Source of the DNA: an uncultured bacterium
GTDB taxonomy: Bacteria > Fidelibacterota > Marinisomatia > Marinisomatales > Marinisomataceae
Reading direction: 5' to 3'
DNA length: 64,000 nucleotides
Assembly (NCBI GenBank): GCA_905182795.1
Contig: CAJJCZ010000012.1
Coordinates: 437 to 64,436 of the forward strand
Shown: positions 7,042 to 48,398 of the stretch, piece by piece
Position numbering within the stretch: position 1 is the first letter of the stretch
Layout: each line of letters starts with the position of its first letter
The notes under the pieces: generated by a model
The model's input: only the letters and a program-made list of their open reading frames with translations
What the model was told of the DNA's origin: nothing
The model's database searches: none
Made by a program: the position numbers and the translations under genes

Positions 7042-8208
7042 TTATTTTATCATCTCCACAGCTTTTGTTGCAGCTTCATTAATTGTTTCTGCACTTATTA
7101 GTTCAATATCAGATTCATCAAGTATTTTTTTAGCCAACTTAGCATTGGTTCCTTGTAATCTTACAACAACTACAACATCTAATTCTAATTCTTTTACAGC
7201 CTGTATAACACCGTTAGCTACTCTGTCGCATCGGACAATCCCACCAAATATATTGATTAAAATAGACTTCACATTTTTATCAGATAGGATAATTTTAAAA
7301 CCATTTTTAATAGTTTCTACGTTGGCAGCTCCTCCTACATCTAAGAAATTTGCGGGTTCACCTCCACAATGTTTGACTATATCCATTGTAGCCATCGCTA
7401 ATCCTGCGCCATTAACCATACATCCTACATTGCCATCTAGTTTAATATAGTTTAATCCATATTCAGCAGCTTTCAGTTCCAGCGGATCTTCTTCTGACTT
7501 GTCATGATAAGCTGCAATTTCAGGGTGTCTAAATAGAGAGTTAGAATCAATGTCTACTTTTGCATCAAGAGCTATAATTTCTTCGTTAGTTGTTGATACT
7601 AGAGGATTGATTTCTAGAAGGGAACAGTCTGATTCGATATAACATTTATATAAATCTTTGAACATCTGTTCTACATTTTCAAATTTTTCAAGTGATAATG
7701 ATGTAATTATTTCTTTGACTGCACCATCTAGAGCATTAGGTGAATCATCAATCCATGCTTTAATAATTTTTTCAGGATTGTTTTCTGCTACTTCCTCAAT
7801 GTCAACACCGCCTTCAGTAGAAACTATAAATACATCAGAATTTTTAGATCTATCAAATGTGATAGCAAAATAATATTCTTTTTTAATATCTAAGGCTTCA
7901 GTAATGAGAATTTTATTAACCATCTTACCTTCTGGGCCTGTTTGGTGAGTGATTAAGTTCATACCTAAAATTGTATTAGCAGCATCTTGAGCATCTTCAA
8001 AAGTAGAACAATATTTTACTCCACCACCTTTTCCTCGACCTCCAGCATGAATTTGAGCTTTAACAATTACAGCTTCACTATTAAAGTCAGTTTGCACTTT
8101 TTTAATAGTGCGGTCAATGTCGGTACTATTATCAATAGCATAACCTTCCTGAATAGGAACATTAAACTTTTTAAGAATTTCTTTGGCTTGGTATTCGTGA
8201 ATTTTCAT
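7042..8208 (-). CDS. sucC: Succinyl-CoA synthetase beta subunit
   Basis: Canonical N-terminus MKIHEYQAKEILKKF. I trimmed the 14-codon extension in the ORF track, which overlaps the upstream gene. Confidence 0.95.
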   Translation of the reverse strand: MKIHEYQAKEILKKFNVPIQEGYAIDNSTDIDRTIKKVQTDFNSEAVIVKAQIHAGGRGKGGGVKYCSTFEDAQDAANTILGMNLITHQTGPEGKMVNKILITEALDIKKEYYFAITFDRSKNSDVFIVSTEGGVDIEEVAENNPEKIIKAWIDDSPNALDGAVKEIITSLSLEKFENVEQMFKDLYKCYIESDCSLLEINPLVSTTNEEIIALDAKVDIDSNSLFRHPEIAAYHDKSEEDPLELKAAEYGLNYIKLDGNVGCMVNGAGLAMATMDIVKHCGGEPANFLDVGGAANVETIKNGFKIILSDKNVKSILINIFGGIVRCDRVANGVIQAVKELELDVVVVVRLQGTNAKLAKKILDESDIELISAETINEAATKAVEMIK

Positions 8209-8209
8209 A

Positions 8210-9826
8210 TTAATCCATGTAAGGATAGCGATAATCCTTAGGGGGTTCAAAGGTTTCTTTAATTGTTCTCGGTGAAGTCCATCTTAAAAGATTAAGCATA
8301 GATCCGCCTTTATCATTAGTACCAGAAGCTCGACTGCCACCAAAAGGTTGTTGTCCTACAACAGCACCAGTTGGTTTGTCGTTAATATAGAAATTTCCTG
8401 CTGAAAATCTTAATGTAGAGCGTACTTCTTCTACAATATCTCTATCTTCAGAGAAAACACAGCCAGTTAATGCATAAGGAGATGTTGAATCGATTAGCGT
8501 TAAAGTTTCTGACCACTGAGCTGTATCATAAACATAAATTGTCAATACAGGACCAAAAATTTCTTCTTCTAATGTTTTAAAATGAGAATCACTAGTCACT
8601 ATTACAGTTGGTTGAACAAAATAGCCTTTTGACTTATCATATGTTCCACCACATAGAACTTCACAATCACTTGATTCATTTGCATAATCTATATATGAAG
8701 ATATTTTATCAAATGCTGTTTCATCAATGACTGCATTAACGAAGTTTTTAAAATCTTCTGGCGGTCCTACTTCTATGGTAGCAATTTGTGTTACAAGTTT
8801 TTCTTTAATGATATCCCATTTAGTAGAAGGGAGGTAAGCTCTAGACATAGCAGAACATTTCTGTCCTTGATATTCAAATGCCCCTCTTATCATTGCAGTC
8901 ACAAGACCATCAATATTAGCAGATTCATGAGCAATACAGAAGTCTTTTCCTCCAGTTTCACCAACTAACTTAGGATAACTTTTGTATGTATCTAGATTTT
9001 TAGATACACCTTTCCATAAATGTTTAAATGTTTTGGTAGATCCAGTAAAGTGTACTCCAGCTAAATCTCTATGAGCAAGTACCTGGTCACCAATTTTAGG
9101 ACCGTTACCTGGAATGAAATTGATTACTCCGTCAGGAAGACCTGCTTCTTTGTAAAGTTCCATAATCACATGAGATGAATAGACTGCGCTTGGTGCTGGT
9201 TTCCATAATACTGTATTGCCTACAATAGCAGGGGCAATAGCTAAGTTTCCTCCAATACTGAAGAAGTTAAATGGAGCAATAGCAAAAACAAAACCTTCGA
9301 GAGGTCTGAATTCTAAAGCATTGTGCATTCCTTCTGGAGAGATAGGGGTGAATGTTTCTTGCATTTTATAAGAAAATTCAATACTAAAATTTAAAAAGTC
9401 TATGAGTTCACATGATGCATCAACTTCAGCCTGAAAAACACTTTTTCCAATATCGAGCATTGCTGCAGCATTAATTTTATATCTATATGGTCCATCGATT
9501 AAGTCGGCAACTTTCTTAAAAATTGAAGCTCTATACTCAAGAGATGTATTTGACCAAGATTTCCACGCCTCAAGAGAAGACTCTATTGCCATTTCAATTT
9601 CTTTTTCTCCAGCTTCATGATATATACCTAGAATATGTTGATGATCATGAGGTTTTGTACATGTCTGCGTATTACCTGTATAATATTCTTTTCCATGAAT
9701 AATGACTGGAACTTCTTTTTGTCTATTTGATTGTCTTTCAATCTCTATTAATAATGCTTCTCGATGTTTTGAACCTGGTTCAAAATCTAGTATTGGTGCA
9801 TTCACTGCTTTAAAATTTTTGTCCAT
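8210..9826 (-). CDS. pruA: 1-pyrroline-5-carboxylate dehydrogenase (ALDH4-type)
   Basis: 538 aa aldehyde dehydrogenase with VGETGGKDF and the catalytic Cys in GQKCSA. N-terminus resembles the long P5CDH type. Confidence 0.85.
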   Translation of the reverse strand: MDKNFKAVNAPILDFEPGSKHREALLIEIERQSNRQKEVPVIIHGKEYYTGNTQTCTKPHDHQHILGIYHEAGEKEIEMAIESSLEAWKSWSNTSLEYRASIFKKVADLIDGPYRYKINAAAMLDIGKSVFQAEVDASCELIDFLNFSIEFSYKMQETFTPISPEGMHNALEFRPLEGFVFAIAPFNFFSIGGNLAIAPAIVGNTVLWKPAPSAVYSSHVIMELYKEAGLPDGVINFIPGNGPKIGDQVLAHRDLAGVHFTGSTKTFKHLWKGVSKNLDTYKSYPKLVGETGGKDFCIAHESANIDGLVTAMIRGAFEYQGQKCSAMSRAYLPSTKWDIIKEKLVTQIATIEVGPPEDFKNFVNAVIDETAFDKISSYIDYANESSDCEVLCGGTYDKSKGYFVQPTVIVTSDSHFKTLEEEIFGPVLTIYVYDTAQWSETLTLIDSTSPYALTGCVFSEDRDIVEEVRSTLRFSAGNFYINDKPTGAVVGQQPFGGSRASGTNDKGGSMLNLLRWTSPRTIKETFEPPKDYRYPYMD

Positions 9827-30523: not shown

Positions 30524-31849
30524 ATGCAAACTCTTCCTATTAAAAAATTTGTCCTTGAAACTTATGGATGTCAAATGAATACAGCTGATTCTGAGCTTGT
30601 TGAAGGTATATTATTAGACTTAGGCTTAGAAAAAACACAAGATTTGCATGAGGCAGATGCAATCTTTCTTAATACATGTGCTATAAGAGAAAATGCAGAA
30701 GTCAAGGTTCATTCACGCTTAGGCAATCTCCGTAAAATAAAGCAAGTGAAGCCAGAATTAATCATTGGAGTTCTTGGTTGTATGGCTCAAAACCTTAAAG
30801 ATGATTTATTGAAAAATAAACCATATGTAGATATTATTTTAGGCCCTGATTCTTATAGGAATATTCCAAAACTAATGAATAGACATCTTATAGAGAAAAA
30901 GAGTATTGTTGATACAAAATTATCAAAATACGAAGTATATGAAGATATGTTTCCAAGTAGAGGAGATACTTTCAATGCATGGGTTTCTATTATGAGAGGT
31001 TGTGATAAATTTTGTTCTTTTTGTATAGTGCCTTTTACTAGAGGAAGAGAAAGAAGTAGAAGTGTTGATAGCGTTATTACTGAAGTAAAGAAAGCAGTAG
31101 ATGAAGGCTATGTCGAAATCACTTTATTGGGACAAAATGTAAACTCCTACAAGCATGAAAAGAAATCATTCGCTGATTTATTGTTGGCAGTATCTGATAT
31201 TCCCGGTGTTAAAAGAATTAGATATACCTCACCTCATCCGCAAGATATCAATATAGAATTACTAGAAGTGATGGCTTCTAGAGATAATATTTGTAACTAT
31301 GTACACTTTCCAATGCAATCAGGATCAAATGAAGTATTAAAGCGTATGAATAGAACCTATACAAGAGAACACTTTTATTATATGGCTAAAAAAATTAGAG
31401 AGATTATGCCTAATTGCGGTTTATCTACAGATATTATTGTAGGGTTTCCAGGAGAAACTGATGAACAATTTAGAGAGACCTTAGACTTGATGGAGAAAAT
31501 CAAATTTAATTCTGCTTACACTTTTAAATATTCTTCAAGACCCTATACAAGAGCAGCTCAATTTTCTGACCAAATTCCAAAACAAATCAAAAAAGATAGA
31601 TTGGATGAGATGCTTAAGCTGCAACGAAAACATACGCTTGAACTAAATATGAAAAAAGTTGGAAATTTTGAACAAGTTTTAATAGAAAAAGAAAGTAAAA
31701 AATCTACAAATCATTGGGCAGGAAGAACTGATTCGAATGAATGGGTGATTTTAGAAAAAAATCATAGTAAAATTAAAGATATTATTCCGGTAGAAATTAT
31801 AGAGGCTAGTGGAGTAATTTTACGTGGAAAAGAAATAACAGGAGCATAA
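30524..31849 (+). CDS. miaB: tRNA-i6A37 methylthiotransferase
   Basis: ETYGCQMN N-terminal cluster, radical-SAM CDKFCSFCIVP and a TRAM-like C-terminus. Confidence 0.9.
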   Translation: MQTLPIKKFVLETYGCQMNTADSELVEGILLDLGLEKTQDLHEADAIFLNTCAIRENAEVKVHSRLGNLRKIKQVKPELIIGVLGCMAQNLKDDLLKNKPYVDIILGPDSYRNIPKLMNRHLIEKKSIVDTKLSKYEVYEDMFPSRGDTFNAWVSIMRGCDKFCSFCIVPFTRGRERSRSVDSVITEVKKAVDEGYVEITLLGQNVNSYKHEKKSFADLLLAVSDIPGVKRIRYTSPHPQDINIELLEVMASRDNICNYVHFPMQSGSNEVLKRMNRTYTREHFYYMAKKIREIMPNCGLSTDIIVGFPGETDEQFRETLDLMEKIKFNSAYTFKYSSRPYTRAAQFSDQIPKQIKKDRLDEMLKLQRKHTLELNMKKVGNFEQVLIEKESKKSTNHWAGRTDSNEWVILEKNHSKIKDIIPVEIIEASGVILRGKEITGA

Positions 31850-32163
31850 TGTTTAGAATATTAAGAGTATTATTTTTCTTAGGTTTTTTAGCAGGAGCTT
31901 TTTTGCTATTTGATAAAAATAGTGAGCCAATTGTGATCTACTTTTTTAAAGATAACGGCTATTCTATTCCTGGATATTTAGCTTTTATATTATTTACAAT
32001 GATAGGTGTAATTGTAGGATATATCATATCACTCAAATCTGTCTTTTCTTATCGATCAGAAATATCAAAACTTGTTAAAACAAACAAAGATACTTCAGAA
32101 GAGCTTGATAGTCTAAGAAATGTAGCGGTTGGCGAAGAGTTTAGCTTTACTGAAAAGGAGTAA
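31849..32163 (+). CDS. LapA-domain small inner-membrane protein
   Basis: Two TM helices plus a charged tail, directly upstream of a TM+TPR protein (LapA/LapB-like pairing). Confidence 0.5.
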   Translation: MFRILRVLFFLGFLAGAFLLFDKNSEPIVIYFFKDNGYSIPGYLAFILFTMIGVIVGYIISLKSVFSYRSEISKLVKTNKDTSEELDSLRNVAVGEEFSFTEKE

Positions 32164-32169
32164 ATACCC

Positions 32170-33216
32170 TTGAATATTATCTATTTTTTTATTGTATCTA
32201 CTCTACTCATTATTATTTATTTCGTAAGGAAGAGACCATCACAACAACCAAGCGATATTGAAGTATATAATCAGGCGTTAAAAGCCATCATCGATAACAA
32301 TCATGAGAAAGCATTTAAAATCTTAAAAAATATCATTGCCAAAGATTCAAACAATACAGAAGCATATTTATTATTAGGGAATCTTTTAAGAGATAGAGAT
32401 ATCAATAAAGCTACTAAGATTCATCAAACCATTATTGTTAGACCAAAATTATCAAAAGAGTTAAAGGTTCAGATTCATCAAGCTTTGGGTCTAGATTACT
32501 TAGAGCTTGGAAATACAGTCAGAGCAGAAGATGAATTTAAAAAAATGCTAGATATAGATTCTAAAAATAAATGGTCTTTAGGAATGTTAAAAAATATCGC
32601 TACTGAAAATAAATCATGGAATGATGCACTTGAGTATGAAAAAAAGCTAATAAAATACTATCCTGAGATTAAGAAGAGAGATGAATCAAAACTGAATTAT
32701 TTCGTTGCTATGGATTATAAAGATAAGAATAATGAAAAAAATTATCTGTACTACTTAAAAAAGAGTATTAAGTCAGATCATGTTTATAGTGAATCTTATC
32801 TAGAATTATCTTCGCATTATATTGATAATACAGATTTAGCTATGGAGCACCTTATTCTATTCTCTAAAGCAAATCCAAGTGGTAGTGTTACAGCATTCAA
32901 GAAAATTGAAAACCTTTTGTTTGATGAAAAAAGATTTGATGATGTAGAGAGTTTATATAGAAAAATTTTAGAAGATGATTTCAATAGCTATGCTTTCAAT
33001 CGATTGGTTGATATTTACCTTGAAAAAAATGAAAAAGATGAAGCTGTAGAATTGATAGAAAAATTTATGCCAAAATTTGACTACCACTCAAAAAGTTCTA
33101 ATAAATCATATGTAATACGATTAAATCGAATGAAGGTAGATTCAGATAATTTTGATATGAGAAAAGCTTTATCGAGCTTTTGTAACGATATAATTGAGAA
33201 TGAGAATATTAATTAG
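32170..33216 (+). CDS. TM-anchored TPR protein (LapB/YciM-like, no rubredoxin C-terminus)
   Basis: N-terminal TM helix and TPR-like repeats (AYLLLGNLL..., LGLDYLELGN...). TTG start. I found no CxxC pairs at the C-terminus. Confidence 0.55.
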   Translation: MNIIYFFIVSTLLIIIYFVRKRPSQQPSDIEVYNQALKAIIDNNHEKAFKILKNIIAKDSNNTEAYLLLGNLLRDRDINKATKIHQTIIVRPKLSKELKVQIHQALGLDYLELGNTVRAEDEFKKMLDIDSKNKWSLGMLKNIATENKSWNDALEYEKKLIKYYPEIKKRDESKLNYFVAMDYKDKNNEKNYLYYLKKSIKSDHVYSESYLELSSHYIDNTDLAMEHLILFSKANPSGSVTAFKKIENLLFDEKRFDDVESLYRKILEDDFNSYAFNRLVDIYLEKNEKDEAVELIEKFMPKFDYHSKSSNKSYVIRLNRMKVDSDNFDMRKALSSFCNDIIENENIN

Positions 33217-33844
33217 AGCAATCCTTATATTAGTTTGTGTAGTAAATATACTATTTAGTCAAACTACAGATTCAGGAGTCCTTTATCAGCAAGCTACTAA
33301 TACCGTTGATGCAGATAAGGCATCTAAAATCTATGATAAAATTATCCAGTTAAATAGTAAGTCTGATTATTATTGGTTATCAATATTGAAAAAAGCTGAA
33401 ATTAACTATGCTATAGGTTCATACATCTCTGCTTCTAACCTATTTAAAGAGTTCAATATCGAAGCCCCAACACATTTAGTGACAGATGATTCAAAAGATC
33501 TTTTTTTTAAGTCATTAACTGCTGCAGGACAGATAGATTCTTTAAAGGTTTATCAGAAAAAATTAAATAGCTCAGGGTTTTCAAAAAAAACAAAAACTAT
33601 TGCAAAGAAAAATAATGTATGGTTTGTACAGTTCGGCGTTTATAGTAAAAAAGAGAGTGCAAATATTTTAAAAGAATCTTTAATAGAGGATGGTTTGTCA
33701 GGCATTCAAGTAAGTCAAGTTATGAACAGAGGAAAAATGATTTATTATGTTAGGGGTATTAATGTTAAATCATATGCTTTAGTACAAAAACAAGCAAACA
33801 AACTTAAAAAGAAGGATATTGATTTTATTATATCTGGATATTAA
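33200..33844 (+). CDS. Secreted SPOR-domain protein
   Basis: Signal-like ILIRAILILVCVVNILFSQ. C-terminal SPOR pattern VWFVQFGVYSKKESA...MIYYVRGINV. ATG at 33200 preferred over the TTG at 33194. Confidence 0.6.
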   Translation: MRILIRAILILVCVVNILFSQTTDSGVLYQQATNTVDADKASKIYDKIIQLNSKSDYYWLSILKKAEINYAIGSYISASNLFKEFNIEAPTHLVTDDSKDLFFKSLTAAGQIDSLKVYQKKLNSSGFSKKTKTIAKKNNVWFVQFGVYSKKESANILKESLIEDGLSGIQVSQVMNRGKMIYYVRGINVKSYALVQKQANKLKKKDIDFIISGY

Positions 33845-33848
33845 GAGT

Positions 33849-35690
33849 TTATTTCTTTGCTACTTTATATAATCCAATAATAATAGCTGATATCAGAGCT
33901 AATGCTACTATATCATTATAGGGAGAAGGTAAAGCATACTCAGGCCAGTAATTTTTATTAAAGAATAAAGGTATAGCAATAAATATAGCCATCAACGCTT
34001 CTCCAGTAATTAAGCCTGAAGCCAGCAGTAAACCATTATTCTTACCTGATTCAGAAGCAGTTTTTCCAGCAAAATGATTAAGCATTCCACCAACAAAAAT
34101 AGGAAAAGTTAATTCAATAGGAAGATAGATTCCAATCGCAACTGCCAATATAGGTACTCTAAATTCTGCGCCTCTACGTAATTGATATTGATCAAGCATA
34201 ATAATTAAGATGCCTAATACTCCACCAGCATAAATCATTCCCCATTCTAGATTGCCAGAGAATACGCCATTTGCTACACTAGTCATGAGTACTGCCTGAG
34301 GTGCAGGTAAGTCTGAGCTTCCAATACCATACGCTTCATGTAAGAGTGTTAAAACGATTCCAAGTGTTAATGCAGAGCTAATAACACCTACTAGCTGCAT
34401 AAGTTGTTGCTTCCATGGAGTAGCACCAACAATATTACCAGTTTTAAGATCTTGTAGATTATCTCCACCAATTGCAGCTGCACAACATACTACTGCACCA
34501 ATAAGAATAGCAGCAGCAGCCCCTTTAGATGAATCCACATCAAAGAAAGTAATAATTAATAATGAACTGAATAATATTGTGGCGATAGTCACACCTGATA
34601 TAGGATTATTTGAAGATCCTACTACCCCTGCCATATAAGCAGCAACAGCAGAGAATAGGAATCCAAAGATACACATAATAATAGATAGTATAATTGCAGA
34701 AGTCCAAGATGGAATAATATCAAAATATGTAAAGGATATAGGTATAAGCATTAATAAGATAGCTATAAACACATAGTTAATAGGAAGATCCCTCTCTTCC
34801 AATGGAACATCGCTAGCATTATCTCCTAAGGTTTTTAGACTAAGCTGGATACTTTCAATGAGAGGTTTTGCTAGTTGAATAACAGACCAGATTCCACCAA
34901 CTACCATTGCTCCAACACCTAAATAACGTATTTTTGCATTCCAAATAATATTTGCACCCTCAAATAAAGAATCGCCTTCATGTCCATATAAATAAGAATA
35001 AATAGGAATTGCTACCGCCCATGAGATTAATCCACCAGAGAAAGCAAGGATACCAATATTTCTACCTACAATATATCCTACACTAATAAGTGAAGGAGAT
35101 AAGCTGGCGCCCATTCCAAAAATAGCACCTCTAATAGCTATTGCTCCACCTACAGCACTAGACCAAATTCCAAACGCTAATTCTCCGAGTTTAACTACTC
35201 CTCCTACAAGAGCTGATAGCCCAATTAGTTTTAAACTTTCACTCGATTTTTTAGCATCAGATTCATGCCCTGTTTTTAATACAGCGGCAGTTGCAACACC
35301 TTCAGGAAATTTTAAATTTGCTTTCAAGATTAATGCGCGTCTTAATGGTACAGTAAATAATGCTCCTAATATTCCACCTACCATAGCAATCTTGGTTACT
35401 TCCCAGTAATTAATAGTATCCCAATAGCCTATCAATACAAGAGCAGGAATAGTAAAAATAACTCCAGCCGCTAATGATTCTCCAGCTGATGCAGCGGTTT
35501 GTACAATATTATTTTCTAGAATATTTGATTCACGAAATAGTTTTAAGATTCCCATGGACATAATTGCAGCAGGAATAGAAGCAGAGATTGTCATACCTGC
35601 ATACAAGCCTAAGTAGGCCATTGCAGAAGAAAGAACTATTGACAGAAAAATACTTAAAAAAAATGCTTTTACTGTTATCTCTTGTTTCAT
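33849..35690 (-). CDS. OPT-family oligopeptide transporter
   Basis: 613 aa polytopic membrane protein with an OPT-like N-terminus (GLYAGMTISASIPAA) and C-terminal GEALM motif. Confidence 0.85.
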   Translation of the reverse strand: MKQEITVKAFFLSIFLSIVLSSAMAYLGLYAGMTISASIPAAIMSMGILKLFRESNILENNIVQTAASAGESLAAGVIFTIPALVLIGYWDTINYWEVTKIAMVGGILGALFTVPLRRALILKANLKFPEGVATAAVLKTGHESDAKKSSESLKLIGLSALVGGVVKLGELAFGIWSSAVGGAIAIRGAIFGMGASLSPSLISVGYIVGRNIGILAFSGGLISWAVAIPIYSYLYGHEGDSLFEGANIIWNAKIRYLGVGAMVVGGIWSVIQLAKPLIESIQLSLKTLGDNASDVPLEERDLPINYVFIAILLMLIPISFTYFDIIPSWTSAIILSIIMCIFGFLFSAVAAYMAGVVGSSNNPISGVTIATILFSSLLIITFFDVDSSKGAAAAILIGAVVCCAAAIGGDNLQDLKTGNIVGATPWKQQLMQLVGVISSALTLGIVLTLLHEAYGIGSSDLPAPQAVLMTSVANGVFSGNLEWGMIYAGGVLGILIIMLDQYQLRRGAEFRVPILAVAIGIYLPIELTFPIFVGGMLNHFAGKTASESGKNNGLLLASGLITGEALMAIFIAIPLFFNKNYWPEYALPSPYNDIVALALISAIIIGLYKVAKK

Positions 35691-35711
35691 AATTTCAACT
35701 TACAAATTATT

Positions 35712-35778
35712 TAACAGGGGTGCAATTGCTGAGAACATACCCTACGACTTGATCTAGATAATGCTAGCGTAAGGAAAA
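35712..35778 (+). promoter_or_regulatory. TPP (THI-box) riboswitch aptamer
   Basis: Conserved blocks in the expected order: GGGGTGC (35717-35723), GCTGAGA (35728-35734), ACCCT (35739-35743), TGATCTAGATAATGCTAGCGTAAGGAA (35750-35776). The AGGA at 35772-35775 lies inside the aptamer 3' end, 11 nt before the ATG at 35787. Confidence 0.8.
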
Positions 35779-35786
35779 ATAAAAAA

Positions 35787-36092
35787 ATGAAAAATAAATA
35801 TATATCATACTTAACACTGATTGCGATGTTCTTTGTGAGCATCCAAGTATTTCATCATCACGATTTAGACTTATCGAATGAAAATGTACTTAATCGTAAT
35901 ATTGAATCAATAATAAATGAAGATATACATAAGTGTGATCTTTGTAAGCTAGGTTATACCAAATTTTTTCTTACAGAAGATACTTTTTTATTTAATGAAG
36001 TTTTTTCTAGTAGTTGTGGTATAGTTCAGCCTAAGGCATATTTTTATAAAGAAATTTATAAAATATCAAATAAATCTCCACCTCTAGTTTAA
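35787..36092 (+). CDS. Small membrane-anchored protein with His cluster, CxxC and C-terminal PP motif
   Basis: TM helix (YLTLIAMFFVSIQVF) followed by HHHD, then CDLC, ending KSPPLV. First ORF after the riboswitch, upstream of the receptor. Confidence 0.5.
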   Translation: MKNKYISYLTLIAMFFVSIQVFHHHDLDLSNENVLNRNIESIINEDIHKCDLCKLGYTKFFLTEDTFLFNEVFSSSCGIVQPKAYFYKEIYKISNKSPPLV

Positions 36093-36167
36093 TAATTATA
36101 CAATTATAATATTAATCGATATCTATAAAAGGTATCTAATTTATTAAACTCATTTAAGGAGAAAAAA

Positions 36168-38588
36168 ATGAAACGATTTATTTTAACACTATTTTTCATG
36201 AGCATTATTTTTGCTCAATCAACAATCACGGGACTTGTCATTGATCAAGATACAGGTCTTCCATTAAAGGATGCAAATGTATCTGTCGTCGATGACAGTG
36301 GAGCAAGCATTGCTGGAACTAGTACAGATGATGATGGAAAATTTGAACTTAGTCTTTCTGAAGGCAGAAAAGTTCAAGTCTCTGTTATTGGATATGAGAA
36401 TGCAACTGCTGATGTAGTATTTAATCAGTCTATGATTTTCAATCTTGTAAGCGAAGCCATATCTTTTGAAGGTGTAAGAGTCTTCTCGTCACTTCGCAAA
36501 GTTAATGAAGGTGACCTAGCTACTTCAGCAATCATTTTTAATGATGAGCTACAAGTTAAGCAAGGACAGCACTTCAGTGACTTAATACAAAAAGTTCCAA
36601 ATCTAAATTATGCAGGTGGAACTTCCAGACCGAAATATTTTCAAATTAGAGGAGAGGGTTCTGTAAGTCGATATGCTGACCAAGGACCTCCAAGTACTTA
36701 TGTTGGATTGGTTTTAGATGGGATGGATCTGTCTGAACTTGGTATGATTACACCTCTTTTTGATATGCAGCAAGTAGAAGTACTAATGGGTGTCCAAACT
36801 AGTTTATTTGGTGCATCAGCATCTTCTGGTTTGATTAATTTTAAAACTAACGATCCAACGGATAAACAAGAAGGATATGTTATGACCCAATTTGGTTCAT
36901 ACAATACTCTTACAAATGGAATTGTCTATAATACTCCATTATCAAATGGTTGGAAGTTAAGATTAGTAGGTCACTCGAATGTTTCAGATGGATATAAAGA
37001 TAATGTTGCTTCAGGCATAGATTATGCATCAGCAAATAGAGATGAGACATCATTTAGAGCTAAATTATTAAAGACTGGCGATAATAATATTACGCAAAAG
37101 TATACAATGATTTACTCTGATTTTGATAATGGATATGATAACTGGGCTCCAGATAATAATACTGATAATATTACCTATTCAGATAATCCAGGTAAAGACA
37201 GTCAAAAATCACAGATTTTTATAGCTGACTATAGTTATGATCTTGATGAAGGTTTTGCTGATCTGAATGTCGGTGTATCAAACAATGAAACATTACATAG
37301 TTATGATTCAGATTGGGGAAATTATCAATTTTGGATTCAAGATCCTTACAACTTTGATCCAGCAGTAGAAGGATATCAATATGACTTTTTTGATTCATTC
37401 GATAGAGACATTGATACAAGAACTGTTGATTTTAGATTAAGATCAAATACTGCCAATGATAATAAAGTAGACTATGTAATGGGATTATATCAGTCTAATT
37501 ATGAAGAAAAAACTAATGCAGATGGATACATTTTTGGAGGCTCTTCCACAGGTTTAGCTTCTGCTTATGATATTATCACAAAGTCTGCATATGGTGAATT
37601 AGCATTTAATTTTAAAAATGATTCATCAGTTTCTTTAGCCTTTAGATCCGAAGCTAGAGATCTTACATATAATGATTTTAATGATAAAAGTGCAAGCTTT
37701 GATATGATGGGTGATTTTGAAAACTCATATAAAATTGCTTATGAATTTCATCCAACTCCAACCCTACATTGGTTTGCTTATTACGCTGAAGGATATCATC
37801 CTGCAGGTATAAATCAAAATCCATATTTAGACGCGGATGAAAAAACATATGATGCAGAAACTTATTTTGATATAACTACTGGAATAAGATGGTATACTGA
37901 TAATATAAAATTATCAAGTTCTCTATTTTACTTAGAGCATGATGGTCATATTTATGAAACAAGTGAGCAATTGGATCCAATGAATCCTAATGCATTTGCT
38001 TTTTTTAAGACAAATGCTGAATCAGGCTATGAGTATGGTTCTGAATCAACTGGTGAATTTAGAATAAGTGATAAATTTACTATTAATGCTACTTTAGGAT
38101 TATTGAGTTCTGAAATTGAGTTGGGTGGTCATGATGAACATGGCGATGATGACCATGATGAAGACCACGGCGATGATGACCATGATGAAGACCACGGCGA
38201 TGATGACCATGATGAACATGGCGATGAACATGAAGGTCATGAGCATGGTAAAAAAGCACATTCACCAAACTGGAATTACAGCTTATCATTTAACTATGAT
38301 TTCACTGTAAACAATTCTTTAATGATTGAAATTTCAGGAAAAGATGGATTTGTATTTGATTCTGCGCATGATGAGTATGAATCAGAACCATATCATCTAT
38401 TGAATGCATATTATAATCATTCAATCAATCAATTTGATCTAGGATTCTATGCAAAGAATATCCTTGATGAAAGTTACACAGATAGAGGATTTATTATTGG
38501 TCTAGAACCTCCAATATATCAAGAGAAGCTATACAAGTCTTTTGGACCTCCAAGAGAAATTGGAATGTCATTAACATATAGTTTCTAA
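36168..38588 (+). CDS. TonB-dependent outer-membrane receptor with CarboxypepD_reg-like N-terminal domain
   Basis: Signal peptide, STITGLVIDQDTGLPLKDANVSV... domain, plug region, long beta-barrel ending in ...GMSLTYSF. GGAG Shine-Dalgarno upstream. Confidence 0.9.
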   Translation: MKRFILTLFFMSIIFAQSTITGLVIDQDTGLPLKDANVSVVDDSGASIAGTSTDDDGKFELSLSEGRKVQVSVIGYENATADVVFNQSMIFNLVSEAISFEGVRVFSSLRKVNEGDLATSAIIFNDELQVKQGQHFSDLIQKVPNLNYAGGTSRPKYFQIRGEGSVSRYADQGPPSTYVGLVLDGMDLSELGMITPLFDMQQVEVLMGVQTSLFGASASSGLINFKTNDPTDKQEGYVMTQFGSYNTLTNGIVYNTPLSNGWKLRLVGHSNVSDGYKDNVASGIDYASANRDETSFRAKLLKTGDNNITQKYTMIYSDFDNGYDNWAPDNNTDNITYSDNPGKDSQKSQIFIADYSYDLDEGFADLNVGVSNNETLHSYDSDWGNYQFWIQDPYNFDPAVEGYQYDFFDSFDRDIDTRTVDFRLRSNTANDNKVDYVMGLYQSNYEEKTNADGYIFGGSSTGLASAYDIITKSAYGELAFNFKNDSSVSLAFRSEARDLTYNDFNDKSASFDMMGDFENSYKIAYEFHPTPTLHWFAYYAEGYHPAGINQNPYLDADEKTYDAETYFDITTGIRWYTDNIKLSSSLFYLEHDGHIYETSEQLDPMNPNAFAFFKTNAESGYEYGSESTGEFRISDKFTINATLGLLSSEIELGGHDEHGDDDHDEDHGDDDHDEDHGDDDHDEHGDEHEGHEHGKKAHSPNWNYSLSFNYDFTVNNSLMIEISGKDGFVFDSAHDEYESEPYHLLNAYYNHSINQFDLGFYAKNILDESYTDRGFIIGLEPPIYQEKLYKSFGPPREIGMSLTYSF
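38142..38216 (+). repeat. In-frame 27-bp perfect tandem repeat (2 full copies plus 21 nt) encoding GDDDHDEDH units
   Basis: GGCGATGATGACCATGATGAAGACCAC at 38142-38168 and 38169-38195, then the first 21 nt again at 38196-38216. Confidence 0.95.
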
Positions 38589-38601
38589 TGTCTTATTTTC
38601 A

Positions 38602-38635
38602 TAATTTAGCGGGTATTGTATTACCCGCTAAATTA
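38602..38635 (+). terminator. Perfect 14-bp stem, 6-nt loop hairpin between the receptor gene and polA
   Basis: TAATTTAGCGGGTA (38602-38615), loop TTGTAT, TACCCGCTAAATTA (38622-38635). No T-tract follows, and the last stem base is the A of the polA ATG. Function (terminator or translational element) is uncertain. Confidence 0.4.
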
Positions 38636-41349
38636 TGAGCTCTAAACAACAAAAAAGATTATTCATTATTGATGGCTATGCCACTTTATATCGATCACAT
38701 TATGCTTTAATCAGAAATCCATTAACAAATATTGCTGGTACACCTACCAGCGCTATATTTGGATTTGCGAATCAAGTATTTCAATTAATTGAAGATGAAA
38801 AGCCAGATTATCTTGTTGCAGCTTTTGATTCAAAAGGTAAAAACTTTAGACATGAACTCTACACAGACTATAAGGCAAATCGATCTGCAATGCCCGATGA
38901 GATACAAACACAACTTCCATATTTATGGGAACTTCTAGAGGCAATGAATATCCCAATGTTAAGAGTGGGAGGTGTAGAAGCAGATGATATTATTGGAACG
39001 GTTGCTAAGATGTGTGATAAAGAAAATCTGCAGTGCAATATTGTAAGTGGAGATAAAGACTTTATGCAATTAATTAATGATAAGACGTTCTTATATGCCC
39101 CTCAAGCAAGAAAGCGTGCAAAAGAAATATTTGATAATAAAAAAGTATTAGAAAAATGGGGAGTTGGGCCAGAGCATATCATTGATTTACTAGGTCTGAT
39201 GGGAGATAGCTCAGATAATGTACCAGGCGTACAGGGAGTTGGTCCCAAGACAGCAATGAAATTGATACAAGATTTCGGTTCTATTGAAAATATATATGAA
39301 GAAATTGATAATATTAGTAATGAAAAAATGAGAGAAAAGTTGTTAAATAGCAAAGACAACGCTTTCTTAAGCAAGCAATTAGTTACTATTTTGACTGATG
39401 TAGATATTGAGGCTACTATCAGTGATTTTAAAAAGAAGGAAATGGATTCAAAAAAATTAGAAGATATTTTTAAGGAATTGGAGTTTTCTGGTCTACTTAA
39501 AAAAATTGGTTCAAAGGAGTCTGTTGAAATCAAAACAGTAAAACGAGAAAAGAAATACGAAAATCTTACCAGTATAAATCAATTAAAATCATTTGTTAGT
39601 TCAGTGAAAGAAAATGAATGGCTATCTGTTGATTTAGAAACTACTTCTATCAATCCTATGATGGCTGAGATTGTAGGATTTAGTTTTTCTGTCAAGAAAG
39701 ATACAGGAGTATATATTCCAATACGCTTTAAAGATAAGACAGACAATTTATTTGGAGATGACGACCTTCAGGTTGTCATTGATATTTTAAAGCCAGTATT
39801 AGAGAATCAAAATATTCCAAAAACAGGACAAAATATTAAATATGATGCATTAATAATGAAACGATACGGAATTGATTTGAATGGTATTGCTTTTGATACA
39901 ATGATTGCTGCACATTTGATTAGTCCTAATGTTAGATCGTACAAATTAGACAATTTGTCTCTAACACATCTTGGTTATAAGATGGTTCCTATACAAGACT
40001 TAATTGGATCAGGAAAAAATCAGATAACCATGGATCAAGTTACCTTAGAGGATGTATCTTTTTATGCAGCAGAAGATGCTGATGTTGTGATTGAGTTGAC
40101 TGATATTTTTCTGAAAGAACTGAAAAATCAAAAATTATATAACTATTTCAAAACAATTGAAATTGATTTATTACCTGTTTTAATTGATATGCAATTTAAC
40201 GGGATTTTTGTTGATAAAGATTACCTTGCAATACGTTCCAGCGAAATTGGTATAAAAATTGATGTTCTCCATAATCAAATTACAAAATTAGCAGATCAAG
40301 ATTTTAATGTGAATTCTTCGCAACAGCTTGCGGAGATTTTATTTGATAAATTAAACCTACCGATGATTAAAAAGCGATCTACAGCAGAAGCTGTTTTATC
40401 AGAATTGAAAAATAAGCATGAGCTTCCAAAGTTAGTATTGCAGTATAGGAAATTATTTAAACTAAAGAATACCTATCTTGACCCAATACCAACTAATATT
40501 AATCCAGTGTCTAATAGAGTCCACTCTTCATTTAATCAAACTATGACAGCCACAGGAAGACTGTCTTCGAGTAGTCCAAATTTTCAGAATATTCCTATTC
40601 GAACAGAAGATGGAAAAGATGTAAGGAAGGCTATTAGAGCACAATCATCAGATTATCAAATTTTTTCTGCAGATTATTCTCAAGTCGAACTAAGAGTTAT
40701 GGCACACTTAAGTCAAGATGTGGCTCTTATCGACGCCCTTAATAAGGGAGAAGATATACATACATTTACTGCAAAAAATATATTTGATATAGATAAAGAT
40801 GAGAATGTGTTACCTGAGATGCGACGTACGGCAAAAATAGTCAATTTTGGAATTATGTATGGTGCAGGTCCATTTCGTTTAAGTAAAGAGTTGGATATTT
40901 CATTCGGAGAAGCTAAAAAAATAAAAGATGCTTATTTTAGTAAGTATAAAGGTATTGAAGATTATATCGCAAGGTCTAAAGTGCTTATTAAATCTGAAAA
41001 ATCTGTACAGACATTATTAGGAAGAAAGAGAGCTGTATGGGACTCAGATAGTCAAAATAAAATTAGAAGAGATGCTGCAGAGCGAATGGCTATTAATATG
41101 CCCATTCAGGGGACAGCAGCTGAAATGATTAAGCTTGCAATGATTAAAATATATAAAGACCTAAAAGATAAAAATCTAAAATCAAAATTGATTTTACAGG
41201 TTCATGATGAGTTGCTTTTAGAGGTTCATAAAGATGAAATAGATTATATATCAGAAATGGTAATTAAAAATATGAAGAACGCAATACAGCTAGACGTTCC
41301 AGTAGAAATTGATTGTGGTTTTGGCCCATCTTGGTTTGAGGCACACTAA
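38635..41349 (+). CDS. polA: DNA polymerase I
   Basis: 5'-nuclease N-terminus (LFIIDGYATLYRSHYA), 3'-5' exonuclease region, polymerase motifs RRTAKIVNFGIMYG and QVHDELLLE. Confidence 0.95.
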   Translation: MSSKQQKRLFIIDGYATLYRSHYALIRNPLTNIAGTPTSAIFGFANQVFQLIEDEKPDYLVAAFDSKGKNFRHELYTDYKANRSAMPDEIQTQLPYLWELLEAMNIPMLRVGGVEADDIIGTVAKMCDKENLQCNIVSGDKDFMQLINDKTFLYAPQARKRAKEIFDNKKVLEKWGVGPEHIIDLLGLMGDSSDNVPGVQGVGPKTAMKLIQDFGSIENIYEEIDNISNEKMREKLLNSKDNAFLSKQLVTILTDVDIEATISDFKKKEMDSKKLEDIFKELEFSGLLKKIGSKESVEIKTVKREKKYENLTSINQLKSFVSSVKENEWLSVDLETTSINPMMAEIVGFSFSVKKDTGVYIPIRFKDKTDNLFGDDDLQVVIDILKPVLENQNIPKTGQNIKYDALIMKRYGIDLNGIAFDTMIAAHLISPNVRSYKLDNLSLTHLGYKMVPIQDLIGSGKNQITMDQVTLEDVSFYAAEDADVVIELTDIFLKELKNQKLYNYFKTIEIDLLPVLIDMQFNGIFVDKDYLAIRSSEIGIKIDVLHNQITKLADQDFNVNSSQQLAEILFDKLNLPMIKKRSTAEAVLSELKNKHELPKLVLQYRKLFKLKNTYLDPIPTNINPVSNRVHSSFNQTMTATGRLSSSSPNFQNIPIRTEDGKDVRKAIRAQSSDYQIFSADYSQVELRVMAHLSQDVALIDALNKGEDIHTFTAKNIFDIDKDENVLPEMRRTAKIVNFGIMYGAGPFRLSKELDISFGEAKKIKDAYFSKYKGIEDYIARSKVLIKSEKSVQTLLGRKRAVWDSDSQNKIRRDAAERMAINMPIQGTAAEMIKLAMIKIYKDLKDKNLKSKLILQVHDELLLEVHKDEIDYISEMVIKNMKNAIQLDVPVEIDCGFGPSWFEAH

Positions 41350-42455
41350 TGAACTATATTGGATCAAAAGTATATATCGATTTAAAGCAATTAGTAAAAA
41401 ACTATCATCTTTTAAACAATAAAGTCGGTAATCTTCCTATTATGGCTACAGTAAAAGCTAATGGATATGGTCATGGTGCTGTCGAAGTTTCAAAAGCTTT
41501 AGAAAAAGAAGGGGTTAGGTATTTAGCAGTCTTTACAATCGAAGAAGGTATAGAATTGAGAGAAGCTGGAGTTCAATCAGACATTTTACTTTATTCAAAG
41601 CTAAATCCTCATGGTATAGATAGCGCTATAAAACATAAACTTACTTTAAACATCTCTTCTTTTGATGATCTAAAAATTTTAGAGACATATAATACACAAG
41701 AGCATACACTTAAAGTGCACTTAAAGATAGATACTGGAATGACAAGATTGGGCGTACCTCATAATCAAGCAGAAGATTTTTTCAAGCAAGCACAAGATAT
41801 TAACCATATAGAGATTGAAGGATTATATTCTCATTTTGCAACTGCAGATGAAGGAGATTTAACATATGCAAAATCTCAATTAGACAAGTTTAATGCAGTG
41901 TTAACAGTTGCAGAAAAGCTAAATATTAAACCTTCATTAATTCACTGTAGTAATAGTGGAGCAATTCTAAATTTACCAGAATCACGGTTTAATATAATTC
42001 GTACAGGGATGTTATTATATGGAGGATTTCCATCTGATGAAGTACCTCAAGATTTGCCTATTAAACCAGTAATGACTTTTACTGCTCCTGTCGTAGAAAT
42101 CAGAGATGTAAAAGCAGGAACTCATATTAGTTATGGTGGAGTATATACTACAAAAGAAGATACAAGAATTGCAGTAGTACAAGCTGGATTTGCAGATGGA
42201 GTACCACGTCCTTGGTATGTAGATGGATTTGTAAAGTTTAAAGATCAAAATTTAAAGATTACTGGAAGAATTTGCATGGATCAGTTGATGATTGATATCG
42301 GATCAGCTGATATTAAGTATGGAGATGAGGTATTAATTTTTGGTTCCAATAAACATGGAACTATTCTAGTGAATGACATTGCTCAAACTATTGATTCTAC
42401 ATCGTATGTACTAGTAACTGCGATTGGAATCCGTCCAAAAAGAATTTATTCTTAG
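41349..42455 (+). CDS. alr: Alanine racemase
   Basis: PLP-lysine motif VKANGYGHG and ICMDQLMID. Confidence 0.9.
   Translation: MNYIGSKVYIDLKQLVKNYHLLNNKVGNLPIMATVKANGYGHGAVEVSKALEKEGVRYLAVFTIEEGIELREAGVQSDILLYSKLNPHGIDSAIKHKLTLNISSFDDLKILETYNTQEHTLKVHLKIDTGMTRLGVPHNQAEDFFKQAQDINHIEIEGLYSHFATADEGDLTYAKSQLDKFNAVLTVAEKLNIKPSLIHCSNSGAILNLPESRFNIIRTGMLLYGGFPSDEVPQDLPIKPVMTFTAPVVEIRDVKAGTHISYGGVYTTKEDTRIAVVQAGFADGVPRPWYVDGFVKFKDQNLKITGRICMDQLMIDIGSADIKYGDEVLIFGSNKHGTILVNDIAQTIDSTSYVLVTAIGIRPKRIYS

Positions 42456-48324: not shown

Positions 48325-48398
<74 letters not shown>

Follow-up and report, generated by a model that had tools for sequence, protein, structure and literature searches.

A TPP riboswitch and a putative metal-sensing upstream reading frame on one leader before a TonB-dependent receptor gene of marine Marinimicrobia

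Two kinds of regulatory leader that have been described before TonB-dependent receptor genes, thiamin pyrophosphate (TPP) riboswitches and ribosome-arresting upstream open reading frames (uORFs), are compared here with a receptor locus at positions 35706-38588 of a 64,000-nt stretch of DNA (contig CAJJCZ010000012.1 of assembly GCA_905182795.1; hereafter the window). The window comes from marine Marinimicrobia (SAR406 / Fidelibacterota), and the nearest relatives of its receptor are all annotated as such. In the first kind of leader, a TPP aptamer immediately precedes the gene of a TonB-dependent receptor whose N-terminal domain is of the CarboxypepD_reg type. It is represented by OMthi (BT2390) of B. 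thetaiotaomicron, which genetic evidence ties to thiamine uptake (PMC5613172), by the Cabys_3975-3977 genes of Caldithrix abyssi, whose layout has been compared with that of BT2390/OMthi (PMC5317091), and by receptors that marine surveys name 'omr1, potential B1 transport' (PMC10881298).

The second kind is represented by CruR (Bp2923, DUF2946) of Bordetella pertussis, a uORF that heads the operon of the TonB-dependent receptor BfrG. Its nascent chain senses copper via a CXXC motif, its C-terminal RAPP motif arrests the ribosome, the spacing of 45 ± 2 is kept in more than 2000 homologues, and premature termination of CruR abolishes expression of the downstream receptor via Rho (PMC9426467). 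A wider CutF-like class has been defined by a length below 150 aa, a signal peptide, a PP motif among the final 15 residues, Cys and/or His motifs and a close downstream gene; its Cys/His variants also occur next to TonB-type genes, many of them in Bacteroidota, and not all members are copper-specific (bioRxiv 10.1101/2022.11.11.516240). In CutF of Rhodobacter capsulatus, the stalled ribosome opens a stem-loop in which the downstream ribosome-binding site is hidden, and a detoxifying enzyme is thereby turned on.

Both kinds of element stand on one leader in the window. On the + strand, a TPP aptamer is followed by an open reading frame (ORF) of 101 aa at 35787-36092, a 75-nt gap and an 806-aa receptor ORF at 36168-38588, and a first-pass annotation of this DNA, made from the letters alone, had already drawn the same pair of reading frames with the same separation. 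The riboswitch-receptor pair and the uORF-receptor pair are each known; what is new is the presence of both on one leader, the variant with a KSPP motif and a spacing of 42 in Marinimicrobia, and the allelic series described below. No report of a TPP riboswitch stacked with a CruR/CutF-type uORF on one leader was found in the literature searched. With slightly better than even confidence, we read the locus as an ancestral thiamine-type TPP-riboswitch receptor locus to which one marine clade of Marinimicrobia has added a second regulatory layer and metal-binding features, so that two sensors act in series. The aptamer, the gene order, the peptide motifs with their spacing, the association of the riboswitch with the whole receptor family and the pattern of gain and loss were computed.

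The aptamer (35706-35794, +; core 35716-35776) was matched by Rfam model RF00059 over the full model (1-105) with 57.1 bits and an E value of 1.5e-8. A scan with this model was the check that the first-pass annotation had named, and the gathering score of 54.3 bits was exceeded, by 2.8 bits. This margin is small because P3 is cut down to GCAAUUGC, P3a is absent and P1 consists of A/U pairs only. Our own covariance model, built from seven aptamers and then run on all receptor loci, gave the window aptamer 98 bits. According to the pairing map, P2 is formed by 35716-35719/35740-35743, the minimal P3 lies at 35722-35729, P4 is formed by 35748-35751/35770-35773 and P5 by 35754-35757/35764-35767; P2, P4 and P5 are made of standard pairs, in which CUUG/UAAG is compensatory for CCUG/UAGG. 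The THI-box blocks follow one another on the + strand in the order that had been annotated, GGGGTGC (35717-35723), GCTGAGA, ACCCT (35739-35743) and CTTGATCTAGATAATGCTAGCGTAAGGA (35748-35775), and all ligand-contact blocks are intact, namely CUGAGA in J3-2, ACCCU, and GCG...GGA in the pyrophosphate helix. Orthologous aptamers at the same place scored 58.9 (L001), 58.7 (L016) and 57.3 (L003) Rfam bits, with L009 and L010 at 53.4 bits, below the gathering score, and a degenerate aptamer of 42.2 bits in L029. The core is identical at 59 of 61 positions with that of L001 and at 55 of 61 with that of L009, compared with third-codon identities of 0.78 and 0.69, respectively, for the adjoining OPT transporter gene. 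A plain minimum free energy fold of the aptamer was no better than those of shuffled sequences (z -0.08), which is normal for an aptamer with tertiary structure. Two alternative leader pairings seen in folds of the window (CUUAC-GUAAG, and UUUCA-UGAAA over the start codon) had no support in L009 and L010 and were dropped. Judged by its sequence, the window aptamer is a genuine TPP riboswitch, beyond chance, and on balance it appears to be still functional, but not securely so.

The link between the riboswitch and the receptor family extends well beyond the clade of the window. A scan of one genome per species for relatives of the receptor yielded 79 loci, 48 of which encode a receptor 31-35% identical to that of the window and come from Gemmatimonadota, Latescibacterota, Lentisphaeria, Planctomycetota and other Marinimicrobia. 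A TPP aptamer on the same strand lies just 5′ of the receptor in 47 of these 48 loci, the remaining one having no upstream DNA, and Rfam confirmed a sample of these distant aptamers at 58.7-68.7 bits. When 57 aptamers upstream of homologous receptors were aligned, 96% of the cells paired and compensatory changes occurred in 11 of 17 pairs, values for pairing and covariation that were reached by none of 500 shuffles. A thiamin pyrophosphokinase gene (PF04263 + PF04265) lies directly 3′ of the receptor in 12 distant loci, and an SSF symporter gene is found in one, L078. These operons resemble that of Caldithrix, in which thiamin pyrophosphokinase or SSF symporter genes likewise occur, and other Marinimicrobia carry the order OPT (- strand), TPP aptamer, TonB-dependent receptor, polA at the same syntenic position. 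Because of the aptamers in 47 of 48 loci and the kinase genes in 12, we count the receptor as one of the known kind of TPP-regulated thiamine receptors; control of a TonB-dependent receptor by TPP is thus nothing new in itself, and by sequence the window receptor descends from that known kind. The first-pass claim that a TPP riboswitch heads a small His/Cys ORF and a TonB-dependent receptor therefore stands, with a strong family link behind it.

The likeness to BT2390 is one of gene layout and domains, and several features set the window apart. Unlike the OMthi/BT2390 type, it has a 101-codon ORF between the aptamer and the receptor, its receptor carries a 44-aa His/Asp loop and clade-specific invariant histidines, and no inner-membrane thiamine transporter or kinase adjoins it. 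None of the thiamine salvage genes PnuT, SSF symporter and thiamin pyrophosphokinase adjoins the unit in the window, whose neighbours are a divergent OPT transporter gene, a gene for a SPOR-domain protein, polA, alr and AtuA. This agrees with the earlier observation that no thiamine gene lies next to the receptor.

The small ORF (35787-36092, +) is, from its family alignments, a candidate CruR/CutF-like (DUF2946-like) metal-sensing arrest peptide. A first, word-based homology search found only four relatives of it, and the window protein has no Pfam or NCBIfam match, even at E ≤ 10. Synteny then revealed an ORF of 91-102 aa at the same place in 23 species-level loci, and a profile search with this family gave 136 clusters, all of them unnamed. 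The family is narrow, as an exhaustive hidden Markov model (HMM) search of 1.84 billion representatives returned 13 clusters. After the start MK(N/K)K (MKNK in the window) follows a hydrophobic N-terminal segment, seen both in the sequence and in the AlphaFold2 (AF2) model as a putative export helix of aa 2-26. The alignments further mark H23-H25 (nt 35853-35861), of which H23 is invariant in alignment A5, C50xxC53 (nt 35934-35945), and K96-S-P-P99 (nt 36072-36083), which is followed by two residues and the stop codon. Both the CxxC and the C-terminal NKSPP show little or no variation, NKSPP being invariant in alignment A5 and kept in at least 90% of alignment A7. In 134 of the 142 sequences examined, the CxxC stands at a fixed distance from KSPP, 42 residues in 130 of them and 41 in the other four, and KSPP lies one to three residues before the stop in 133 of the 134. 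Among the other eight, three keep KSPP without a CxxC match, and the rest are C-terminally truncated or divergent. Between these motifs the subclades are only 24-30% identical, and the uORF of the window is 73% identical to that of L001, compared with 98% for the receptor. All five NKSPP codons vary synonymously among the 23 loci, from which we conclude that selection acts on the peptide. The AF2 model shows the N-terminal helix only (mean predicted local distance difference test score, pLDDT, 42.6).

These features are those of CruR in several respects. Like CruR, the window ORF is the first gene before a TonB-dependent receptor with a sizeable gap between them (75 nt), has an N-terminal export signal and an invariant CxxC, and closes with a basic-small-Pro-Pro motif shortly ahead of its stop codon. 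Outside the N-terminal helix no structure is predicted for it, in line with what was reported for CruR. KSPP can be read as a conservative variant of RAPP, with K for R and S for A. The window ORF differs in its extra His cluster, in a spacing that is equally tightly fixed but at 42 and not 45, in its length of 101 aa compared with 145 aa for CruR, and, uniquely, in having a riboswitch upstream; Marinimicrobia also lie outside the phyla listed for bp2923 homologues in PMC9426467. It has every operational feature of the CutF-like class (bioRxiv 10.1101/2022.11.11.516240; 10.1101/2025.02.05.636593), including a downstream gene that starts on the same strand within 100 nt and a stem-loop between the two genes. 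Unlike in CutF, however, this hairpin lies 26 nt after the stop codon and 19 nt upstream of the Shine-Dalgarno sequence, and the downstream gene encodes an uptake receptor.

A possible bridge to DUF2946 is the distant member P0252, the weakest of the 13 HMM clusters, which matches the uORF profile with an E value of 5.4e-4. It combines a transmembrane segment, DHDHSHHSHSH, CVVC, a spacing of 44 and RGPP, lies directly upstream of the N-terminus of a TonB-dependent receptor (L080), and scores 23.3 bits against Pfam DUF2946, whose gathering score is 23.7. A tblastn search with P0252 against plasmids, made to gather DUF2946 sequences, gave no match. Other family members had weak NCBIfam matches to the LIC10965 and CzcI families, the latter perhaps driven partly by a His-rich stretch, and both would fit the CruR/CutF-like class. 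The namesake of the LIC10965 family adjoins the TonB-dependent receptor LIC10964 of Leptospira (PMC3953431). Since the window protein has no PF11162 match, we describe the small ORF as one that, from its sequence features, would work like and is probably distantly related to CruR/CutF (DUF2946), and claim no demonstrated membership.

The receptor (36168-38588, +), which ends in ...TYSF, is assigned by Pfam, AF2 and Foldseek to the TonB-dependent receptors with a 22-strand barrel, and Pfam places a CarboxypepD_reg-like N-terminal domain at nt 36222-36476 and the plug at nt 36528-36830. Its AF2 model (mean pLDDT 75.4) has FyuA, FhuA and FoxA as best Foldseek matches, with E values down to 5.5e-32; these are generic matches to TonB-dependent and siderophore receptors and gave no clue to the substrate. 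A sequence search of the PDB returned FyuA (plug region) and a SusC fragment alone. In addition, 44 residues (aa 652-695, 38121-38252), 11 of them His, make up a His/Asp-rich loop (LGGHDEHGDDDHDEDHG...HEGHEHGK), part of which is encoded by a 27-nt tandem repeat (38131-38216; 3.2 copies, 94% matches). In the AF2 model this loop is disordered. The corresponding loops of the relatives measure 22-71 aa, many of these receptors have a second loop of 18-59 aa, and from the modelled strand order and the loop lengths both insertions are most likely extracellular. Among orthologues that are 95-98% identical, the loop length differs (44, 40 and 66 aa), which suggests replication slippage at the 27-nt repeat. 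All 31-35% identical homologues lack the loop.

Further changes are found throughout the clade, here taken as the close receptor orthologues of 52-99% identity. Nine histidines, at positions 269, 528, 534, 544, 591, 594, 655, 693 and 743, are invariant or nearly so (17 or 18 of 18) in this clade alone, and H591 and H594 stand in place of Arg and Gln, which are invariant in 20 of 20 outgroup receptors (31-35% identical). The loop motifs NGYDxWxPDNN, YSDNPGKDSQ, SYDSDWGN, YDFFD, GYxPxGINQxP and DPxNPN are almost unchanged in the clade, and the core residues of these six family motifs are invariant in 38 of 38 aligned receptors. The first-pass annotation had called the combination of a His/Asp loop with a His/CxxC ORF unexpected for a vitamin receptor; both do occur here, and the surprise lessens if they are taken as clade-specific additions to an ancestral thiamine-type locus. 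We also observed that L007, L008, L013, L014, L018, L020, L023, L025 and L030 form a sub-clade without the riboswitch that has the largest His/Asp loops, and that its receptors, of 718-792 aa, lack the CarboxypepD_reg-like domain and have the signal peptide directly before the plug.

The neisserial zinc receptor ZnuD, which is also TonB-dependent, has flexible extracellular His/Asp/Glu-rich loop clusters for which metal capture has been proposed (PMC4557270). The likeness lies in the His/Asp-rich loops and is an analogy only: the ZnuD clusters comprise about 11 residues, compared with 44 in the window and as many as 71 in its relatives, where a second loop can reach 59, and ZnuD is Zur-regulated, not riboswitch- or uORF-regulated. 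No specific sequence relationship to ZnuD was detectable, ZnuD was not among the listed Foldseek matches, and no Zur box was identified.

When these traits were mapped on the tree of the neighbouring OPT gene, the outgroup Marinimicrobia had the aptamer and no uORF, 18 species-level loci of the ingroup had the uORF and no aptamer, and five loci, the window, L001, L003, L009 and L010, had both. The uORF, the His/Asp loops and the nine invariant histidines are confined to one clade of Marinimicrobia. Two further loci, L016 and L029 (the latter with the degenerate aptamer), have the aptamer directly before the receptor, no uORF, and only a short His/Glu loop. As to the question, raised by the first annotation, of whether the three-part arrangement is conserved across genomes, it is thus kept in five loci, and the aptamer has been lost in 18 of the 23 that bear the uORF. 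In the aptamer-less loci the flank AACTTACAAATTATTT is retained and then leads straight into the ATG of the uORF, and the gap between OPT and uORF measures 24-43 nt, compared with 96-98 nt where the aptamer is present. By this footprint, the loss of the aptamer is a clean deletion of about 66 nt that occurred in at least three branches. The exception is L021, with a gap of 183 nt and an extra 49-codon ORF inserted. This insertion (L021:3455-3637) encodes a glycine-zipper-like membrane protein (MKKNNKKLTLGAATGIGVGVG...), lies between OPT and the small ORF, and has a stop codon that overlaps the start of the small ORF (ATGA).

L016 is a mosaic in comparison with the window (L016:1-9577 against window 31826-41841). 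Their identity is 91% from the OPT gene across the aptamer as far as position 35796, falls to about 70% in the first ~2 kb of the receptor, and returns to 84% from 38195 on. The two breakpoints, one at the start codon (35796) and one at the His/Asp repeat (38161-38195), indicate that alternative cassettes are replaced by recombination between close relatives. In L016 it is the ATG of the receptor itself that stands where the window has the uORF ATG, at an equal distance from the aptamer.

How the leader might act can be read in part from its control elements. The SD-like sequence AAGGA (35771-35775; sequence and pairing map) falls inside the P4 3′ strand and the junction, with the uORF ATG (35787) following 11 nt downstream. 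As had been annotated, it is the only Shine-Dalgarno (SD)-like element there and sits in the 3′ end of the aptamer, and no terminator was found between the aptamer and the ATG. For these two reasons, control by the riboswitch is most likely translational, at initiation of the uORF. The receptor has its own strong SD, AAGGAG at 36156-36161, which is kept in all orthologous loci. Between the genes, RNAalifold on 13 loci supports a conserved hairpin (GATATC / loop / GGTATC; 36118-36136, +) of seven pairs, five of them with compensatory changes, plus G-U wobbles. A hairpin with the GATAYC core is also found in the gaps of L001-L003, L007-L010, L013, L014, L018, L020, L023, L025 and L030, and is absent in the sub-clade L006/L015/L021/L026/L027. 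It may be an RNA polymerase pause, a transcript end or a stability element. A palindromic operator of the Fur/Zur type is less likely than an RNA hairpin, given the G-U wobbles and the compensatory outer pairs. A scan for sigma-70 promoters was uninformative (19 sites compared with 20.2 expected).

From these elements we infer translational control, ribosome arrest, metal sensing, polarity and a substrate, together with co-transcription and a response to metal, and the following model combines them. The OPT start codon and the aptamer are 16 nt apart, which places the leader promoter within the OPT gene; the transcript would start there and carry the TPP aptamer. With TPP bound, P4/P5 and the A/U-rich P1 would bury AAGGA and the A-rich spacer, and initiation at the ATG at 35787 would not occur. 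At low TPP the uORF would be translated, its N-terminal helix exported or inserted, and the His motif and C50xxC53 exposed, until the ribosome stalls at K96-S-P-P99, shortly ahead of the stop codon. As in Bordetella CruR, a ribosome at the arrest site would keep the receptor gene on by guarding against Rho-type polarity. Since the CruR paradigm needs translation up to the arrest motif, a block of uORF translation by the riboswitch would silence the receptor as well. Binding of metal to the nascent chain would alter the arrest and shut the receptor off, as a second and independent off-signal. The receptor would then be translated from its own strong SD, and under the net logic of this scheme it would be made only when TPP and the sensed metal are both low. 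Its present cargo may be a metal, free or complexed, or else a thiamine-related compound whose capture is aided by metal. Thiamine or a related vitamer is favoured as the substrate by the family loop motifs and by retention of the riboswitch, and a metal or a metal complex by the His/Asp loops, the clade histidines, the metal-type uORF and the frequent loss of the riboswitch. A more specific proposal, which we put forward tentatively and regard as somewhat doubtful, is that the leader is a two-input gate in which the riboswitch and a metal sensor of the nascent-peptide type act in series, and that a vitamin-B1 receptor is being converted, or extended, to metal-dependent uptake as co-existing alleles (TPP only, TPP plus uORF, uORF only) exchange cassettes in abundant ocean bacteria.

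Several observations weigh against our preferred reading of an ancestral riboswitch locus with an added metal-sensing layer. On the side of the peptide, the window protein and 13 of its relatives have no DUF2946 (PF11162) match at E ≤ 10, the bridge to DUF2946 is a single protein with a sub-threshold score, and the motif and spacing of the window (KSPP, 42) are not those of CruR (RAPP, 45 ± 2). In the gap, a ribosome stalled at KSPP would not reach the hairpin, 26 nt beyond the stop, to melt it, and a CutF-type mechanism therefore does not fit directly. The C>G bias expected of a Rho utilization (rut) site is weak, with 11 C compared with 4-6 G in 78-nt windows across 36020-36137, and this stretch is compatible with a rut site and does not establish one. 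The receptor also has its strong SD and a 75-nt A/T-rich gap before it in which a promoter of its own could sit. On the side of the riboswitch, the score is marginal, P3 is very short, P1 is weak, and 18 of the 23 uORF-bearing species loci have lost the aptamer; its contribution may be little.

A rival account is that the riboswitch is a functionless relic, the clade having switched to uptake of a metal (Zn, Cu, Ni or Co) under control of the uORF only, with the aptamer of the window not yet deleted. The clean ~66-nt deletions that leave the flank in place, the sub-threshold aptamers of L009 and L010 and the degenerate one of L029, and the minimal P3 and weak P1 of the window all point this way, as do the resemblance of the His/Asp loops to the zinc-capturing loop clusters of ZnuD (PMC4557270) and the clade histidines that replace residues invariant in 20 distant outgroup homologues. 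A relic would, however, be expected neither to keep all its ligand-contacting blocks intact nor to be conserved above the synonymous sites of OPT in lineages that bear the uORF (59/61 compared with 0.78, and 55/61 compared with 0.69), and the nearly unchanged loop motifs of the family, with core residues invariant in 38 receptors, argue for a related ligand. We therefore consider a relic unlikely.

A different objection concerns the small ORF, which the first-pass annotation had taken for a partner protein of the receptor. Its position and its His and Cys residues were correctly seen, but its features match those of CruR/CutF-type uORFs, and it is probably not a structural partner. Under that earlier interpretation it would be a stable, membrane-anchored His/Cys protein that aids the receptor, for example as a periplasmic acceptor or chaperone of the cargo, both genes being co-regulated in a TPP-controlled operon. 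The gene pair is kept in 23 species-level loci, an N-in/C-out anchor would place the His residues and the CxxC in the periplasm, and a chaperone role was at one time proposed for proteins of the DUF2946 type (see PMC9426467 for the CutF case). Against these points, only about ten positions are invariant and the rest drifts fast (73% identity where the receptor has 98%), the fixed spacing of CxxC and PP suits a nascent chain in the ribosome tunnel and not a folded domain, AF2 finds no fold, and the characterised relatives CruR and CutF act in cis as regulatory ORFs, so that we give a partner protein a low probability. That the ORF is a chance frame in an A/T-rich leader, with the riboswitch acting directly on the receptor via a long 5′ untranslated region, was suggested by the four relatives of the first search, the missing Pfam match and the G+C content of 25%. 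This explanation is effectively refuted by the 136 clusters, by motifs, length and spacing that are conserved down to 24% identity, and by the synonymous variation of the motif codons, and we attach a negligible probability to it.

Turning to the surroundings of the locus, the divergent OPT-family transporter gene (33849-35690, -; Pfam and NCBIfam) adjoins the receptor unit in 29 loci across Fidelibacterota, including species with a receptor just 31-33% identical. Because the intergenic space on the OPT side is only 24-98 nt in most loci, each of the two promoters must sit inside the opposite gene. OPT is a candidate inner-membrane partner of the receptor. Apparent gene breaks were seen in L027:4001-5578, where the receptor stops at 525 aa, slightly more than 100 residues past the first His/Asp repeat, and in L069:1538-3728, where the OPT gene is split in two ORFs; both could be assembly errors or pseudogenes. 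L050 and L063 have a second TPP aptamer (1320-1429 in each; ~90 bits with our own model) about 2.4 kb upstream of that of the receptor, just before genes for a LacI-family regulator and a periplasmic-binding-like protein, an unusual target for a TPP riboswitch. In the window itself, the only other Rfam match was a tRNA gene at 48325-48398 (+; 60.9 bits), whose anticodon loop CUCAUAA probably makes it a tRNA-Met. A match of our own model at 7063-7163 (-; 14.6 bits, E 0.033) lies inside the ORF 7042-8250, was not reported by Rfam and is probably due to chance. In a partial, non-exhaustive survey, the rest of the window contained housekeeping genes alone.

If our preferred reading of the locus is true, an RNA sensor of an intracellular cofactor and a peptide sensor of a metal, probably a periplasmic one, would be combined without any transcription factor, which would be useful to a streamlined genome. 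The CruR/CutF class would be extended to a new phylum, with KSPP and a spacing of 42, and would gain a candidate sensor of a metal other than copper. The uncultured, abundant marine Marinimicrobia would also provide a natural allelic series of riboswitch only, both elements, and uORF only. This series could help to address what TPP-linked outer-membrane receptors carry in marine vitamin-B1 cycling, and how the specificity and the regulation of a receptor change together.

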